In this document: positions 57,282 through 64,000 of the stretch, in pieces
How the letters are laid out: each line of letters starts with the position of its first letter
Position numbering within the stretch: position 1 is the stretch's first letter
NCBI GenBank assembly: GCA_021204865.1
Contig: JAJPYQ010000046.1
Location: 257-64,256, forward strand
Reading direction: 5' to 3'
DNA from: Prevotellaceae bacterium
GTDB lineage: Bacteria; Bacteroidota; Bacteroidia; Bacteroidales; Bacteroidaceae
Length of the DNA stretch: 64,000 nt
Translations under genes and position numbers: made by a program
Notes under the pieces: model-generated
The model's database searches: none
Seen by the model: only the letters and a program-made list of their open reading frames with translations
What the model was told of the DNA's origin: nothing

Positions 57282-59051
57282 ATGAGAAAGAAGCACTTCC
57301 TTGTCAGTGCCTTGGCGCTGACCTTGGCGCTCTCCCTTACGCACGCCCCCCTCAGGGCGCAGGAAGGGCAGGGCGACACCGAGACCCTGAGCAGCGCGAC
57401 CCTCGACCTCTACCACTCCCTCGGAGAGGCATTCAGGAGCATCGGAGGCACGCACCCCCAGCCGGGAGAGACCGCGCCCTTCTACCGCTGGGAGAGCGAC
57501 ACGCACCCCGTCGTCAGCGTGCAGGACGTGGACTACTCCACAAGCAACAACCTCTCCTACGACGCTGAGGGGCACCTGCGCCTCCACGCCGCCTACGAAG
57601 AGTTCGCCTACTACATCGAGGCGCCCGACGGCTACTACATCTCACGCCTCACCTTCACAGCCTCCCTCGACGAGGGGCTCACGGCCGTCTTCGCCGAGAA
57701 CGAGGCGTACACCTTCTCCTCCAGCGTCACTGAGGAGCAGACCCTCGAGGTAGACCAGCAGAAGGTGAGGGTGCAGCTCGTGGGCAACGGGCACGACCTC
57801 ACACTCACGAGCCTCGAGGCTACGCTGGTGAAGGGCAACGCCCCCGGCACGACCTACGCCGAGGGCATAGAGGGCAAGGTGGTAAGCTCCGTAGCCACAG
57901 AGCCTACCACCATCCTCGGCATCACCGAGGGCGACTGGTACCTGATGTACAACAACCGAGGCGGCTCCACCCCGCTCTACGACACGGGCACGGAGATACA
58001 CCGAGCCACGACAGCCGACGCTCACCCCGTCAGCGAGGGCTCTAAGGCTACGGCCGTGGCGCAGTACCTCGTGCGCTTCCTGCTCACCGACAAGACGAGC
58101 CAGGACCAGAACGTGGCGCAGAACGACACGTGCAACAAGGTGTACAACCTCCAGTTCGCCACCGCCAACTACTGGGCAGGGCACACGACAGCGGGCAAGA
58201 GCGTCATAGCCACGACCCCGTCGGAGGAGGAGAAGGGCGACTACAACGTATACATCGACGCCGGCGACGACCCTTGGGTGTACCTCAACTTCTACGACAT
58301 GGGCTCGAAGGTGGACAACAACGGAGCCGGCAAGGAAGTAGCCATCTGGCAGTCGGGCTACCACTCCGCCGAAGCCGAGAACGAGGAGTGGACGCTCTAC
58401 CGCGTTGAGCTTGCCGACGAGGACCTCGCTGAGGACAACACCCTCAGCCTCAGCTGGACAATGACCACGGCGGGCTGGGCTACGCTCATCCTGCCCTTCG
58501 ACGCTGACCTGCCCGAGGGCATGGAGGCGTTCACCTGCCAGAGCCTCAGCGGCTCGACACTCGAGCTCACCCCAGCCCCCTCACTCGCCAAGAACACACC
58601 ATATATTATAAGGTACGCCGGCGAGACGCTCCCCCTGGAGGACATCATCTGCCCCTTCGAAGGCACGCCCGACCCCTTCTACTACACCCAGCAGCGGGAG
58701 GGCTACCTCACGGGCACGCTCAAGGACATCTACGTGCCGCGCTGGGACACGACGGTCTCCGACTACGTCCTTCAGCAGCCCGAGGGAAGCGCGGCCGCCT
58801 TCTTCCTCGTCGCCTCGGACGAGATACCCCTCACCGCCAACCACTGCTACCTCTCCCTCCCCTCCGCCTCCGAGGCTAAGCAGACGATAAGCCTGCCCAC
58901 CCAAGACGGCGGCTGCGAGACCTCCCTCACAGCCCTCCCCGCCGCAGAGCAGTCCCGAGGAGCGGCCTACTACGACCTCACGGGGCGCAAGGTATCTACG
59001 CCACGCAAGGGCATCTACATACGGCAAGGCAGGAAGCAGGTATTCAAGTAA
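57282..59051 (+). CDS. modular T9SS-sorted surface protein, one internal module (paralogue 1)
   Basis: Signal peptide MRKKHFLVSALALTLALSLTHAPLRAQE, a shared N-terminal domain (GYYISRLTFTAS), one module of about 190 aa (WYLM...LVRFLL...YNLQFATANYW...NVYID...NFYDMG...EEWTLYRVEL), then WATLILPFDADLPEGM...TPYIIRY...CYLSLP, and the CTD tail YYDLTGRKVSTPRKGIYIRQGRKQVFK. Confidence 0.7.
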   Translation: MRKKHFLVSALALTLALSLTHAPLRAQEGQGDTETLSSATLDLYHSLGEAFRSIGGTHPQPGETAPFYRWESDTHPVVSVQDVDYSTSNNLSYDAEGHLRLHAAYEEFAYYIEAPDGYYISRLTFTASLDEGLTAVFAENEAYTFSSSVTEEQTLEVDQQKVRVQLVGNGHDLTLTSLEATLVKGNAPGTTYAEGIEGKVVSSVATEPTTILGITEGDWYLMYNNRGGSTPLYDTGTEIHRATTADAHPVSEGSKATAVAQYLVRFLLTDKTSQDQNVAQNDTCNKVYNLQFATANYWAGHTTAGKSVIATTPSEEEKGDYNVYIDAGDDPWVYLNFYDMGSKVDNNGAGKEVAIWQSGYHSAEAENEEWTLYRVELADEDLAEDNTLSLSWTMTTAGWATLILPFDADLPEGMEAFTCQSLSGSTLELTPAPSLAKNTPYIIRYAGETLPLEDIICPFEGTPDPFYYTQQREGYLTGTLKDIYVPRWDTTVSDYVLQQPEGSAAAFFLVASDEIPLTANHCYLSLPSASEAKQTISLPTQDGGCETSLTALPAAEQSRGAAYYDLTGRKVSTPRKGIYIRQGRKQVFK

Positions 59052-59078
59052 CAACATATAAATATAAGGAGTAACGAC

Positions 59079-59237
59079 ATGGACAAGTACACGAAGCCCT
59101 CTCTGGAGGTGCTGCGCACAGAGACGCAGCAGATGCTCGCCCTCTCGACGGCCAGCGACACGGCCAGCCCCACGCTCCCCTCGCTCGACAAAGGGGACAA
59201 GGGATGGGCCGACGGTGCCGCCGTCTGGGGAGACTAA
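59079..59237 (+). CDS. unannotated 52-codon ORF, paralogue of 62741-62911
   Basis: Own translation: MDKYTKPSLEVLRTETQQMLALSTASDTASPTLPSLDKGDKGWADGAAVWGD. It starts 27 nt after the upstream stop, and the terminator hairpin comes only after it. It is below the length of the shortest ORFs listed in the track. Confidence 0.45.
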   Translation: MDKYTKPSLEVLRTETQQMLALSTASDTASPTLPSLDKGDKGWADGAAVWGD

Positions 59238-59256
59238 GGCAGAGCCCCACAGGCCG

Positions 59257-59295
59257 GACCCCGAGGGAGCTACACGCCGTGGCGCCTTCGGGGTC
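59257..59295 (+). terminator. hairpin plus T-rich tract after the small ORF
   Basis: GACCCCGA (59257-59264) pairs with TCGGGGTC (59288-59295), followed by TTCTTCG. Confidence 0.45.
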
Positions 59296-59332
59296 TTCTT
59301 CGTAACGACTTCCCCGAAGGCTCCGCAGTCCC

Positions 59333-59493
59333 TCCGTCGGACCGTCCGCGGTCTCTCCGTCGGACCGTCCGCGGTCCCTCCGTCGGACCGTCTGCGGTCC
59401 CTCCGTCGGACCGTCCGCAATCCCTCCGTCGGACCGTCCGCGGTCCCTCCATTGGACAAGTCGCGGTCCCTCCATTGGACAAGTCGCGAAGCC
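59333..59493. repeat. 23-bp tandem array, 7 units (family B)
   Basis: Unit starts at 59333, 59356, 59379, 59402, 59425, 59448 and 59471. Five units are TCCGTCGGACCGTCCGCGGTCCC and two are variant units TCCATTGGACAAGTCGCGGTCCC. Confidence 0.9.
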
Positions 59494-59659: not shown

Positions 59660-62600
59660 ATGAAACGAGATTCTTATCTACTCCGCGCCCTCCTTCTGGC
59701 TCTGCCTTTATCGTTGGGCGTGACCTCGGCTTGGGCCGAGGAAGGAGACGAGGAGGGGACGACGACCGTCTCCATCACTGACTTCAGCCAAGGCACAGCC
59801 ACGAGGAGCGACAACTCCAACCCTGAGCCAGGAGGCAACGCCTTCATCACGTGGGTGAGCACCGCCACCCCGGCCCTCACCGTCCAAGACGCCGGCTCCA
59901 CCACTAACAACATCGAGTTCTCTTCTAATGGAGACGACACTTACGCCCTTAAGCTCTCGGAGGGCAGCAGCACTTCCTTCGGCTACACCATCTCAATAGC
60001 CGACGGCTACTACATCACCAGCCTGACCATCGGGGGCAGCATCTCAGCCACGGGACTGAAGGTGACCGTGGACTACGACAACGAGCTCTCCGTGGAGGAG
60101 GCTAACGGCACAGTGAGCAAGACCATCGAGAACGTCAACAAGCCCCTCGTCCGCCTACACCTCGACGGCGACGCAGGCAGCGAGACGTTCACCATCACGT
60201 CCCTCTCCATCACCTACGCCGAGGGCATACCCGACCCTGTTGACCTCACGGGACTGAAGGTAAAGGCAGTGTCCTCCGACGTAGCCTCAAGCATAGAGGA
60301 AGGCAAGTGGTACGTCCTCGCCTCGGCAGGCTCTAAGGCGGCGAACAACGTGGCTTACGAGGACGAGGGCTACATCTCGCTGGACACCGACGTGACCATC
60401 AGCGACCACGTCTACCAAGGGCAGACGGCAGAGGACGCGGCCAAGTACCTCCTGCGCTTCATCCCCTCCTCCAAGCAGTCGGCAGGCTCAGACGGCAACG
60501 AGACCCCCGTCTATCACCCGCAGTGGGCAACGGGCAACTACTGGAACGACATGAAGGACAACGGCTCGACCAGCGACTCAAGCGGCGACATCACCGTCTC
60601 CACCACAAGCATAGGGGAGTGGAACGTCTATCAAGCCAACGGGTACACATACTACGGCTTTAACGTCTACGACCTCGGCAACAGCGTCAACATCTCAGAC
60701 GAGAGCACAAAGCGCCTTAAGCAGTGGTCGAACACGGGCTATGTGCAGGACGGCAACACCAACGACCACTGGAACATATACGAGGTGACGCTCGCCGAAG
60801 ACGTTGACGAGGAGGAAGGCGAGGACGACACAGTAGACCTCGACGGGCTCTACGTGACCGAGGTGGCTACCGACGTTGCCGAGAGCGTGGAGGCAGACAA
60901 GTGGTACGTGCTCTCCAGCGCAAGCACCAACGACTGCGGCGGCAAGTTCGTCTACTACGATGCCGAAGCCTCTGACGACGACCATAGCACGCCCTTCACC
61001 GAAGGCACGACCCTAAGCGACTATGTCTCTAAGGGCAAGGCTGCCGAGGACGTGGCTAACTACCTCATCCGCTTCATCTCCTCGGATAAGACCTCTAACG
61101 GTTACACTGACGACGACGGGGAGACGCACGAAACCCCGGTGTACAACGTGCAGTTCGCCACTGGCGGCTACTGGTCTGACGCTTCGGGAAGCGACAGCGA
61201 GAAGATACTCGTCTCAACCACAAGCAAAGGCGACTATAATGTCTACAAGGTCTCTGGGCAGACGTACTTCGGCATGAACGTCTATGACTTGGGGCACACA
61301 GTGAACGTTGTAAGCACGACTTACGCCTTGAAGACGAACAGCGCCAACACTGGCTATGTGACCAGCGACCATCCTAACGACCACTGGAACCTCTACGAGG
61401 TGACGCTCGGAACGTCGAACGAGGAGGGCGATGACAACAATAGTGACGAGGAGGGGAACAAAGAGGAGGAAGAGGAAGACATAGACGGGACGTTAGACAT
61501 TGACGGGCTGTATGTCACTGAGGTGGCTGACGAGCCCACGACAGAGATAAGCGAGGACACTTGGTATCTGCTTATACACGATGGAGGCTTCCAAGACGAG
61601 CTTGCATACGACACCCAAGACGGCAACATCAAGGCGGTGCACTACACAGATACTGATGACGATAGTAAGAGCTTGAGCGACTATGTCTACGTTGGTCAGG
61701 AGGTAGAGAAGGCTGCGCCTTACCTTATGCGCTACATTGCCTCTTCCGCAACGGTTCAGGACGAGACTGCCCCAGTGTACTACATACAGTGGGCAACGGA
61801 CAACTGGTGGGCTGATATGACGAGCAGCTCTCAAAGCTCTAACATCACCACGAGCGACTACGACGGCAAGGGCAGGTACAACGCCTACGCCCTTGGCGGG
61901 GAGACGCAGTTGATAGGAATGAACGTCTATGACCTTGGGCTTACCGTTAACCTCTCCGCCGTGAACGGCAACCTTATCCTTAACAACTCGGGCAAGATAC
62001 CTTCCGACAGTCAGGCTAACGACCACTGGTACCTCTACGAGGTTAAGCTCGGAGCCTTGAGTGAAGAGACGGAAGTGACGTGGAAGATGACCACCGCACA
62101 GTGGGGCACGCTGATACTGCCCTTCGCCGCGGACGTTCCCGACGACCTTGCCGTCTACACTGTCGAAGGCATCAGCGACGAGGACGAGCTTAGCCTGACC
62201 GCCGCAGAGAGCATAGCCAGCTGCACGCCGTACGTCGTGGAGTACAAGGGCGAGGAAGGGATTGAGGAAGCCAAGGAGTACACCTTCAAGGGCAAGCGTG
62301 AGAACGAGCAGGACACCTACACCGCCACCGCCTCCGACGGCACAAGCCTCACGGGCACACTCTCCGATATGACTATGCCCGAAAGCACGGACGAGACGAG
62401 CTACTACCTCTTGCAAGAGCAGGACACGACGGTAGCCTTCTACATCGTGCAGGACGAAGGCAGAACCCTCAGCGCCTACCACTGCTACCTGAGCCTGCCC
62501 GTCAGCACCACCGTCACCGACGAAGGCAGCGTGGAGACCGACGTCAAGCTGCTCGTCAGCCTGCCCTCTTCCCAGCAGGGAGGCGTGGAGACAGCCGTCA

Positions 62601-62719
62601 GCGCCGTCCGTCAGGGCGAGGCTTCCGCCCAGACAGTCTACGACCTCTCGGGCAGGCAGGTGAGCCAGCCACGGAAGGGCATATACGTCAAGGGAGGAAG
62701 GAAAGTGATAATCAAGTAA
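59660..62719 (+). CDS. modular T9SS-sorted surface protein, three internal modules of about 200 aa (paralogue 2)
   Basis: Signal peptide ...GVTSAWAEE. The N-terminal domain is shared with the paralogues. Three repeats each contain WYVL/WYLL, YL(L/I/M)R(F/Y)I, PVY..QWATGNYW-like, NVY, NVYDLG and NDHW.(I/L)YEV motifs, separated by acidic linkers. Then WGTLILPFAADVP...TPYVVEY...CYLSLP and the CTD tail VYDLSGRQVSQPRKGIYVKGGRKVIIK. Confidence 0.7.
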   Translation: MKRDSYLLRALLLALPLSLGVTSAWAEEGDEEGTTTVSITDFSQGTATRSDNSNPEPGGNAFITWVSTATPALTVQDAGSTTNNIEFSSNGDDTYALKLSEGSSTSFGYTISIADGYYITSLTIGGSISATGLKVTVDYDNELSVEEANGTVSKTIENVNKPLVRLHLDGDAGSETFTITSLSITYAEGIPDPVDLTGLKVKAVSSDVASSIEEGKWYVLASAGSKAANNVAYEDEGYISLDTDVTISDHVYQGQTAEDAAKYLLRFIPSSKQSAGSDGNETPVYHPQWATGNYWNDMKDNGSTSDSSGDITVSTTSIGEWNVYQANGYTYYGFNVYDLGNSVNISDESTKRLKQWSNTGYVQDGNTNDHWNIYEVTLAEDVDEEEGEDDTVDLDGLYVTEVATDVAESVEADKWYVLSSASTNDCGGKFVYYDAEASDDDHSTPFTEGTTLSDYVSKGKAAEDVANYLIRFISSDKTSNGYTDDDGETHETPVYNVQFATGGYWSDASGSDSEKILVSTTSKGDYNVYKVSGQTYFGMNVYDLGHTVNVVSTTYALKTNSANTGYVTSDHPNDHWNLYEVTLGTSNEEGDDNNSDEEGNKEEEEEDIDGTLDIDGLYVTEVADEPTTEISEDTWYLLIHDGGFQDELAYDTQDGNIKAVHYTDTDDDSKSLSDYVYVGQEVEKAAPYLMRYIASSATVQDETAPVYYIQWATDNWWADMTSSSQSSNITTSDYDGKGRYNAYALGGETQLIGMNVYDLGLTVNLSAVNGNLILNNSGKIPSDSQANDHWYLYEVKLGALSEETEVTWKMTTAQWGTLILPFAADVPDDLAVYTVEGISDEDELSLTAAESIASCTPYVVEYKGEEGIEEAKEYTFKGKRENEQDTYTATASDGTSLTGTLSDMTMPESTDETSYYLLQEQDTTVAFYIVQDEGRTLSAYHCYLSLPVSTTVTDEGSVETDVKLLVSLPSSQQGGVETAVSAVRQGEASAQTVYDLSGRQVSQPRKGIYVKGGRKVIIK

Positions 62720-62740
62720 CCACTCTAACACAACGGCGCA

Positions 62741-62911
62741 ATGAGAAAGTACATCAAGCCCTCAACCGAGGCGACAAGCACGGAGACGGAGCGTATGACA
62801 GCCCTCTCCGCCATCAGCTCAGGCTCGGCCCTTCACTACCAGGACAACCCCGACGGCGACGGGCTGGTGAGGGGAAGCCTCTGGGACAGCCTGGACGGCT
62901 TCTGGGACTAA
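62741..62911 (+). CDS. unannotated 56-codon ORF, paralogue of 59079-59237
   Basis: Own translation: MRKYIKPSTEATSTETERMTALSAISSGSALHYQDNPDGDGLVRGSLWDSLDGFWD. It starts 21 nt after the upstream stop and is followed by a terminator. Confidence 0.45.
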   Translation: MRKYIKPSTEATSTETERMTALSAISSGSALHYQDNPDGDGLVRGSLWDSLDGFWD

Positions 62912-62938: not shown

Positions 62939-62977
62939 GCCTGCCGCTTCGCCCACCCGTGGGGCTTGGCGGCAGGC
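62939..62977 (+). terminator. rho-independent terminator after the small ORF
   Basis: GCCTGCCGC (62939-62947) pairs with GCGGCAGGC (62969-62977), followed by TTCTTTATG. Confidence 0.6.
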
Positions 62978-63222: not shown

Positions 63223-64000
63223 ATGAAAAAGGAAACGTTACTCACTTTGGCCCTTGGGATGGCACTGCCGCTGTCTCTGGGCGTGACCAGCGTGCGGGCG
63301 CAAGGGGAAGCCTCGGAGGGCACCACCCTTACGCTCGACCTCGGCGGCGGCACAGCCACGAGGAACGACAACACAGTGCAGCAACCGGGAGGCTCTGCCT
63401 TCGTCAGGTGGGAGAGCGGCACTACGCCTGTGGTGACCCTCGAGGAGGTAAGCACCACCGCCAACAACATGGAGTTCGCCTCCGAGAGCAGCCTCAGGCT
63501 CTCGGAGGGAGGAAGCACGTCCTTCGGCTACACCCTCTCGGTGGCTGAGGGCTACTACATCTCGGAGCTTACCCTTCGGGGCACGCTCTCGGCTGCTGAC
63601 CTCAGCGTGACGATAGACTCAAGCACTAAGCTTAGCGTGGAGGAGGATGACGCAGAGGTGCAGCAGACCATCACGGGCATCAATAAGCCTGAGGTGCGGC
63701 TCTTGCTCAAGGGCAACGACACCGGCGAGGCGCTGACCCTGACGGAGCTCTCGGTGAAGGTGGTGCAGGGGACGCCTAACCCCGTGTCCATAAGCGGCTT
63801 GCACGTGACCAGCGTCTCCGAGACGGTAGCCTCGGGCGTGGAGGAGGGCAAGTGGTACGCCCTCGCCTCGGCAGGCAGCAACGCAGGGGGCAAGTTCGTG
63901 TACTACAACGCAGAGGCGACCAACGAGCAGTACGCCACGCCCTTCACCGAAGGCACTAACCTAAGCGACTACGTCTCTGTTGGTATGACCGCCGAGGACG
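63223..64000 (+). CDS. modular surface protein, paralogue 3 (5' part only; runs off the window)
   Basis: Own translation: MKKETLLTLALGMALPLSLGVTSVRAQGEASEGTTLTLDLGGGTATRNDNTVQQPGGSAFVRWESG...GYYISELTLRGT...GLHVTSVSETVASGVEEGKWYALASAGSNAGGKFVYYNAEATNEQYATPFTEGTNLSDYVSVGMTAED. It is colinear with paralogue 2. No stop occurs before the window end, so it is not in the ORF track. Confidence 0.75.
   Translation, partial: MKKETLLTLALGMALPLSLGVTSVRAQGEASEGTTLTLDLGGGTATRNDNTVQQPGGSAFVRWESGTTPVVTLEEVSTTANNMEFASESSLRLSEGGSTSFGYTLSVAEGYYISELTLRGTLSAADLSVTIDSSTKLSVEEDDAEVQQTITGINKPEVRLLLKGNDTGEALTLTELSVKVVQGTPNPVSISGLHVTSVSETVASGVEEGKWYALASAGSNAGGKFVYYNAEATNEQYATPFTEGTNLSDYVSVGMTAED

Follow-up and report, generated by a model that had tools for sequence, protein, structure and literature searches.

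Members of Prevotella and Segatella dominate the gut and rumen, and they adhere and degrade polymers by means of surface proteins of type IX secretion (T9SS). For T9SS cargo with a type-B CTD, a cognate PorP/SprF-like protein is encoded adjacent to the cargo gene, as in the pair sprB-sprF. In another kind of system, a peptide bound through its leader by a recognition protein (RRE) is modified. The components for linear polyphosphorylated peptides (LPP) of Bacillota are a precursor (LppA), an RRE (LppB), an SpI-like peptidase of the archaeal signal-peptidase type (LppS) and an HprK-like kinase (LppK) (PMC13381572). LPP precursors are 35-200 aa long and carry the N-terminal motif YxxPxVLxHQxIxFETxxS ahead of variable C-termini; binding by the RRE requires the YxxP, cleavage after Thr-1 releases the leader, and the kinase places several phosphates on Ser3, the sole phosphorylation site, of a core that starts with A-Q-S (PMC13381572). 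The precursor gene is co-localised with the enzyme genes in clusters that also hold an MsbA-like exporter and an NTP-transferase (PMC13381572). Lasso leaders carry the motif [Y/W]xxPx[L/V/I/F/A], which the RRE binds as a β-strand (PMC13381572), and the known RiPP precursors of Bacteroidales have a GG leader and a PCAT exporter (PMC10352776).

Here we analyse two small ORFs in a 64,000-nt stretch of DNA from a Prevotellaceae bacterium (the window: positions 257-64,256 of the forward strand of contig JAJPYQ010000046.1, assembly GCA_021204865.1). The window lies on C51 of our contig numbering, and the assembly, referred to below as the source genome, is 2.34 Mb in size, 57% G+C and 89% complete. 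Both ORFs are members of a large unnamed family of acidic peptides of ~45-65 aa, and the linkage of the family is to one unnamed module that stands ahead of the T9SS tail of the upstream protein, not to secreted proteins generally.

Two small genes behind T9SS-type cargo genes

Small gene 1 occupies positions 59079..59237 of the forward strand, from the ATG at 59079 to the TAA at 59237, and encodes a 52-aa product, MDKYTKPSLEVLRTETQQMLALSTASDTASPTLPSLDKGDKGWADGAAVWGD. Its leader-like N-terminus (MDKYTKPSLEVLRTETQQML) is followed by the triplet A-L-S, whose Ser is the Ser23 invariant in the family, and a variable spacer leads on to the tail KGWADGAAVWGD. Small gene 2 (62741..62911, forward strand, ATG at 62741 to TAA at 62911) encodes a 56-aa product of the same architecture, MRKYIKPSTEATSTETERMTALSAISSGSALHYQDNPDGDGLVRGSLWDSLDGFWD; its orthologue is identical in GCA_021199175.1 and diverged in GCA_021204545.1. 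The initial annotation had placed both ORFs immediately behind large surface-protein genes, and they are present as it described, with ATGs 27 nt (gene 1) and 21 nt (gene 2) past the stops of the large genes. It had also reported that neither product contains Cys or a hydrophobic signal segment, which is correct for these two peptides; Cys is present in some paralogues elsewhere.

The large gene ahead of small gene 1 (cargo 1, 57282..59051, forward strand) encodes a 589-aa protein with a signal peptide, a predicted β-sandwich module ahead of the CTD (58449..58865, forward strand) that co-occurs with the small gene, and a short T9SS-type tail. Cargo 2 (59660..62719, forward strand, 1019 aa) shares the same C-terminal module (62072..62500, forward strand) and tail. 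A third cargo gene of the array, of which the window holds the 5' part (63223..64000, forward strand), continues past the window's end, and a third trailing small gene, encoding 57 aa, lies just beyond that end (C51:66014-66187). Small ORF 1 and cargo 1 share a reading frame, with one TAA between them (59049-59081), as do small ORF 2 and cargo 2, with two TAA stops between them (62717-62743). The shared frame of both pairs looks coincidental because frame is not conserved across the family.

A strong hairpin had been noted after each small ORF, and folding calculations bear this out, placing the hairpins 18-27 nt from the stops. The first (59256..59296, forward strand) lies 18 nt past the stop of small gene 1, has a folding energy of -35.2 kcal/mol (z -3.0) and is followed by UUCUUCGU; the second (62939..62977, forward strand) lies 27 nt past the stop of small gene 2, has a folding energy of -36.1 kcal/mol (z -2.6) and is followed by UUCUUUAU. 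Directly after each hairpin comes the short U-rich stretch UUCUU, and a simple generic terminator scan of the window flags neither of these terminator-like hairpins because their U-tracts are short. Small gene and cargo gene, we infer, almost certainly share one transcript. The spacer from the first hairpin to the next cargo gene is filled by a 23-bp tandem repeat (59322-59480; consensus TCCGCGGTCCCTCCGTCGGACCG, 6.9 copies, 89% matches).

The region 5' of the start codons of the small genes is unstructured in folding calculations, and across 55 family members the 25 nt 5' of the start are A-rich, including position -3. An A-rich upstream context is associated with initiation in Bacteroidota, which proceeds without Shine-Dalgarno sequences (PMC6847099), and the start regions of the small genes, judged from their sequence, fit this mode of translation initiation.

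The arrangement of small gene and hairpin also bears on the possibility that the ORF is a cis-acting regulatory peptide, whose translation, or stalling at the Trp-acidic tail, would act on the terminator or on how stable the cargo mRNA is at its 3' end. Conserved Trp residues close to the C-terminus are used by known arrest peptides, which the conserved tail Trp may recall by analogy; the small gene is, moreover, always the last cistron, with a strong hairpin within ~20-30 nt. Between the last Trp and the stop, however, family members have anything from 0 to ~9 residues, and the best-conserved part is the N-terminus, which by then would have left the ribosome. Most loci also lack a conserved downstream target, and the gap to the upstream stop is variable (-4 to over 100 nt) with no fixed frame. 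We consider regulation in cis very unlikely.

The peptide family and its conservation

Family members are built from three parts: an N-terminus of ~20 residues, M-K-K-x-Y-x-K-P-x-hydrophobic-E-V-x-E-x-E-x-x-M-x; an A-x-S, its Ser near-invariant, and then a variable spacer rich in S/T/D/P; and a tail that runs from basic residues through Trp to acidic residues. The initial annotation had suggested searching six-frame translations of the whole genome for the N-terminal motif. A profile built from three N-termini recovers further copies from the six-frame ORF set of the source genome with E values of 1e-7 to 1e-16, and ~10 paralogues were found there: three on C51, one each on C35, C68, C55, C73, C87 and C59, and a truncated one on C29. 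The truncated member (C29:763-864, MRKYIKPTTEEFVMETTTMIAASEKTEKEGREKL) has the leader but lacks the Trp tail; the surrounding stretch is AT-rich, no cargo gene stands ahead of this copy, and the start of a 139-aa ORF overlaps with its stop.

Beyond the source genome, an exhaustive protein search returned 92 database representatives at E values up to 1e-3, all of 39-73 aa, and the relatives found by word-indexed and exhaustive searches are all labelled 'hypothetical' or unnamed. No model of Pfam or NCBIfam covers the two peptides, ten relatives or the 92 members, which give sub-threshold matches to lasso-leader models only, and the peptides have no match to TIGR04354, the amphi-Trp model. A literature search on small ORFs behind T9SS genes found nothing, and no published description from Bacteroidota turned up.

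Conservation falls on a few positions. Tyr4 and Pro7 stand in every one of the 92 sequences and Ser23 in at least 90% of them, all three are invariant across 60 leader segments, and two tail Trp residues are invariant within the close subfamily. Comparison of orthologous arrays from two other Prevotellaceae assemblies gives dN/dS values of 0.14-0.57 (Nei-Gojobori), and the frames are open in the orthologues of both assemblies, free of the stops or frameshifts that the annotation had named as signs of a non-functional ORF. On these comparisons the small genes are shown to be under purifying selection, and the original view that both are functional, conserved small genes holds well, position and sequence being kept far beyond the two paralogous loci. 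It is scarcely credible that the frames are conserved but untranslated, as a by-product of nucleotide-level constraint on the 3' UTR, given dN/dS below 1, frames that stay open across hundreds of diverged copies with conservation at the amino-acid level, and the A-rich, unstructured start contexts. AlphaFold2, run with the family alignment, assigns the peptide alone no secondary structure (mean pLDDT 60), and the family peptides are predicted to be disordered.

With a narrow profile, 40/201 genomes of the same GTDB family carry 1-11 copies each, spread over 14/35 genera; the figure of 40 is an underestimate because a leader-only profile recovers diverged copies in two genomes earlier scored negative. 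These diverged copies keep M-K-K-x-Y-x-x-P, the Ser and the Trp-acidic tail. A broader profile gave one weak match, partial and of unconfirmed membership, in a phylum sample of 400 genomes, and a single positive genome (G731, with nine copies) in an order sample of 300 genomes outside the family. The peptide family is shown to be limited mainly to Prevotella-like Bacteroidales.

Linkage to the module ahead of the T9SS tail

The cargo proteins vary widely in length and N-terminal content and have in common ~200 C-terminal residues, which consist of the ~140-aa module and then the short T9SS-type tail, ..YDLSGRKV..KGIYI.GGKKVVIK. This tail ends ~40 ORFs of the source genome. Neither of the upstream cargo proteins of the window, candidates for T9SS type A cargo, matches a T9SS CTD model of NCBIfam or Pfam at E values up to 1; PorV is present in the source genome (507 bits, cut-off 250), which therefore has T9SS machinery. 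AlphaFold predicts the module as a β-sandwich with pLDDT above 90, Foldseek finds no PDB fold for it below E 0.02, and it has no Pfam match. At least 947 relatives occur in the 120-385-aa size class alone. We conclude that the ~140-aa module ahead of the CTD is an undescribed domain.

The annotation had paired the small genes with the surface proteins as wholes. Their co-location with the large genes stands, and the partner is to be drawn more narrowly, the link being to the ~140-aa module rather than to the entire protein. The proposed co-occurrence check makes this plain: in the source genome, 8/12 module ORFs carry a peptide gene vs 0/28 ORFs that have the tail only. Elsewhere, 40/47 peptide genes follow a module-bearing ORF, with a gap from stop to start of -4 to 316 nt (median ~22 nt over the 47 loci in other genomes), and the peptide genes of the outlying genome G731 likewise stand behind module genes. 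At the level of genomes, the module occurs in 93/201 members of the family and in 40/40 of those that are peptide-positive. Fusion of the peptide to its cargo by stop-codon read-through or frameshifting is ruled out because there is no preferred reading frame, the frames of the 47 pairs being split 21:14:12; in the source genome 4/7 cargo-peptide pairs are in frame.

This linkage speaks for the main rival to the LPP-like reading developed in the next section, namely that the peptide stays as translated and is dedicated to binding the module or a factor that handles it. By analogy with other pairs of cargo and partner genes, such an unmodified partner might escort the module, keep it from folding, or regulate its export or display. 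In each of the counts just given it is the module that the peptide gene follows, not the T9SS tail, and the gene pair has been duplicated and retained jointly, with the cargo varying in its N-terminal parts. The amphipathic, strand-like character of the N-terminus and the Trp-acidic tail would also suit short binding motifs. A partner that stays unmodified, however, should remain cytoplasmic because it has no signal peptide, while the module is exported; 4/12 module genes of the source genome have no peptide gene, and the invariant YxxP and the lone invariant Ser are left unexplained. Structure prediction gives it no support. In a fusion model of module, tail and peptide, obtained by translating the window through the single in-frame TAA between cargo 1 and peptide 1 and run in AlphaFold with an unpaired alignment, confidence for the peptide does not rise: it has pLDDT 48-64 and no secondary structure, like the peptide alone, although the tether is short, at 10 residues, and no contacts were output, so that the test is a weak one. 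We regard an unmodified partner as rather unlikely, while still to be weighed seriously. An immunity-like role for the partner, which had also been suggested, finds no support.

An orphan operon and the comparison with known systems

A candidate source of peptide-modifying enzymes lies elsewhere in the source genome, in a translationally coupled orphan operon (C59:39096-40765) of three genes with 4-nt overlaps that encode a kinase-like protein, an S24/S26-like peptidase and a PqqD protein. Its neighbours are an rpoD-like gene directly ahead, a 164-aa ORF and a membrane protein. The RRE candidate is the last gene, an 89-aa ORF (C59:40498-40765) that scores 46 bits on PF05402 (cut-off 23.4) and matches TIGR04353 weakly; its PqqD match (C59:40543-40755) marks the only clear PqqD-family protein in the source genome. 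The peptidase candidate, a 175-aa ORF, scores 19.4 bits on Peptidase_S24, below the cut-off of 23.3, and has no NCBIfam match; the motifs GYSMRPF, LHRIV and GDGN are seen in it by eye. The kinase-like protein is a 293-aa P-loop ORF with no Pfam match that scores 30.6 bits on ScmC (cut-off 125) and 24 bits on HprK-related kinase A (cut-off 200). Sequence searches of the PDB with the RRE, the peptidase, the kinase and the leader profile returned nothing relevant. No precursor-like ORF stands beside the operon in the source genome, G067 or G731, no exporter or NTP-transferase was seen beside it, and no enzyme gene adjoins any of the peptide genes. In the source genome there is therefore an RRE operon that has no substrate nearby, and a YxxP peptide family that has no enzymes nearby.

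The kinase-like gene is found in 159/201 genomes of the family and in 18/300 at the level of the order, and 41/42 peptide-bearing genomes have it, a count inflated, like the other co-occurrence counts, by the relatedness of the genomes. In genus g4, the peptide-bearing G067 is the only kinase-positive genome among nine, and G731, the only peptide-bearing genome of the order sample, has the best kinase match there. The 94%-complete MAG G081 has peptides and no kinase or peptidase match; in a similar case, G177, the peptidase lies at a contig end. Many kinase-positive genomes have no detectable peptide (e.g., G002 and G030). Those that have the kinase and no module are without peptides, which speaks for the reading of the peptide as an unmodified partner of the module. 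The kinase is also present in 88/93 module-bearing genomes, and co-occurrence therefore cannot tell whether the peptides depend on the operon or on the module.

Precursors of other known kinds of modified peptide, among them lasso peptides and radical-SAM Trp-crosslinked peptides, were considered as well. Lasso precursors and their discrete B1 recognition proteins resemble the present system in the RRE-bound leader motif, and 4/92 family members match lasso-leader models weakly, below threshold (best E 0.017-0.025); the core here, in contrast, does not follow the ring logic of Gly/Ala-1 and Asp/Glu-7-9. In the tail a basic residue precedes Trp as in Lys-Trp crosslinked peptides, which is a resemblance only, and the family peptides have no GG leader. 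A precursor of one of these other classes is, in our judgement, a slim prospect. A lasso pathway was rejected: the source genome has no B2 protease (no match to PF13471) and no dedicated cyclase. Matches to PF00733 comprise two strong ones within a 604-aa asnB-like ORF, which looks like an ordinary asparagine synthase, and a weak one (E 1.5e-5) to a 408-aa ORF on C8. A radical-SAM maturase was likewise rejected, the only clear SPASM enzyme being an anaerobic sulfatase maturase. Incomplete as the assembly is, missing lasso or radical-SAM enzymes are not proof of absence. The gene for the sulfatase maturase (C70:4064-5209) has a GTG start that overlaps the stop of a 958-aa T9SS-tailed ORF, and this cargo may be a sulfatase-type enzyme.

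We tentatively favour another reading of the family, although we put it at somewhat less than an even chance: that the peptides are scattered LPP-like precursors, served in trans by the orphan operon and co-expressed with the module-bearing cargo. The N-terminal segment would then be a leader whose YxxPx-hydrophobic motif docks as a β-strand on the RRE of the operon; the operon peptidase would remove the leader near M-x|A-x-S; the kinase-like protein would phosphorylate the invariant Ser, as in LPP of Bacillota; and the mature, strongly anionic, Trp-tailed peptide would act together with the co-expressed surface-protein module. The full form of this proposal is a dispersed LPP pathway in which one operon matures many precursors and the module has the phosphorylated, Trp-tailed peptide as its ligand, anchor or regulator; in our estimate this is improbable. 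LPP biology accounts for neither the conserved Trp tail nor the strict link with T9SS cargo, which counts against the LPP-like reading. This reading is compatible with a partner of the module if it is the matured peptide that acts on the module. A small exported peptide, one of the roles raised at the outset, gains indirect support from the likeness of the leader to those of RRE-dependent modified peptides and from the orphan kinase/peptidase/RRE operon.

A peptide gene tied to one class of cargo suggests that the production or use of those proteins includes a step not yet described, and a family with up to ~11 copies per genome, conserved across many genera, is without a name in the databases. 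Were the LPP-like reading true, a peptide class described only in 2026 in Bacillota would gain a second phylum and a new genome layout, in which one enzyme operon serves many distant precursors, and the LPP class would get a concrete cellular context to test. A dispersed LPP pathway would, if true, link ribosomal peptide modification to type IX surface display.

Set beside the described systems, the locus resembles the sprB-sprF type in that a class of T9SS cargo, set by its C-terminal region, has a dedicated accessory gene immediately downstream. It differs in that the accessory is a disordered, cytoplasmic-type peptide of ~50 aa rather than an outer-membrane β-barrel of ~300 aa, and in that the correlated feature is the module ahead of the tail, not the tail itself. 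From LPP it differs in the host phylum, Bacteroidota, which is absent from PMC13381572, and in the layout, the precursors here being scattered, with ~10 in a genome, each encoded downstream of a T9SS cargo gene rather than in the enzyme cluster, with no exporter or NTP-transferase adjoining the operon. The HQ and FET positions of the LPP motif are missing from the peptides, the peptides have a conserved Trp-acidic tail, and the enzymes are only remotely similar to the reference models. Precursor and enzyme genes are thus not co-localised as they are in LPP, and membership in that class is not established. The likenesses are several: a small precursor whose N-terminus is conserved and whose C-terminus varies; invariance of the YxxPx-hydrophobic motif; one conserved Ser in A-x-S, at a distance from the Tyr of 19 residues here vs 18 in LPP; and, encoded in the same genome, a coupled set of a kinase-like protein, a candidate S24/S26-clan peptidase and a discrete PqqD-type RRE.
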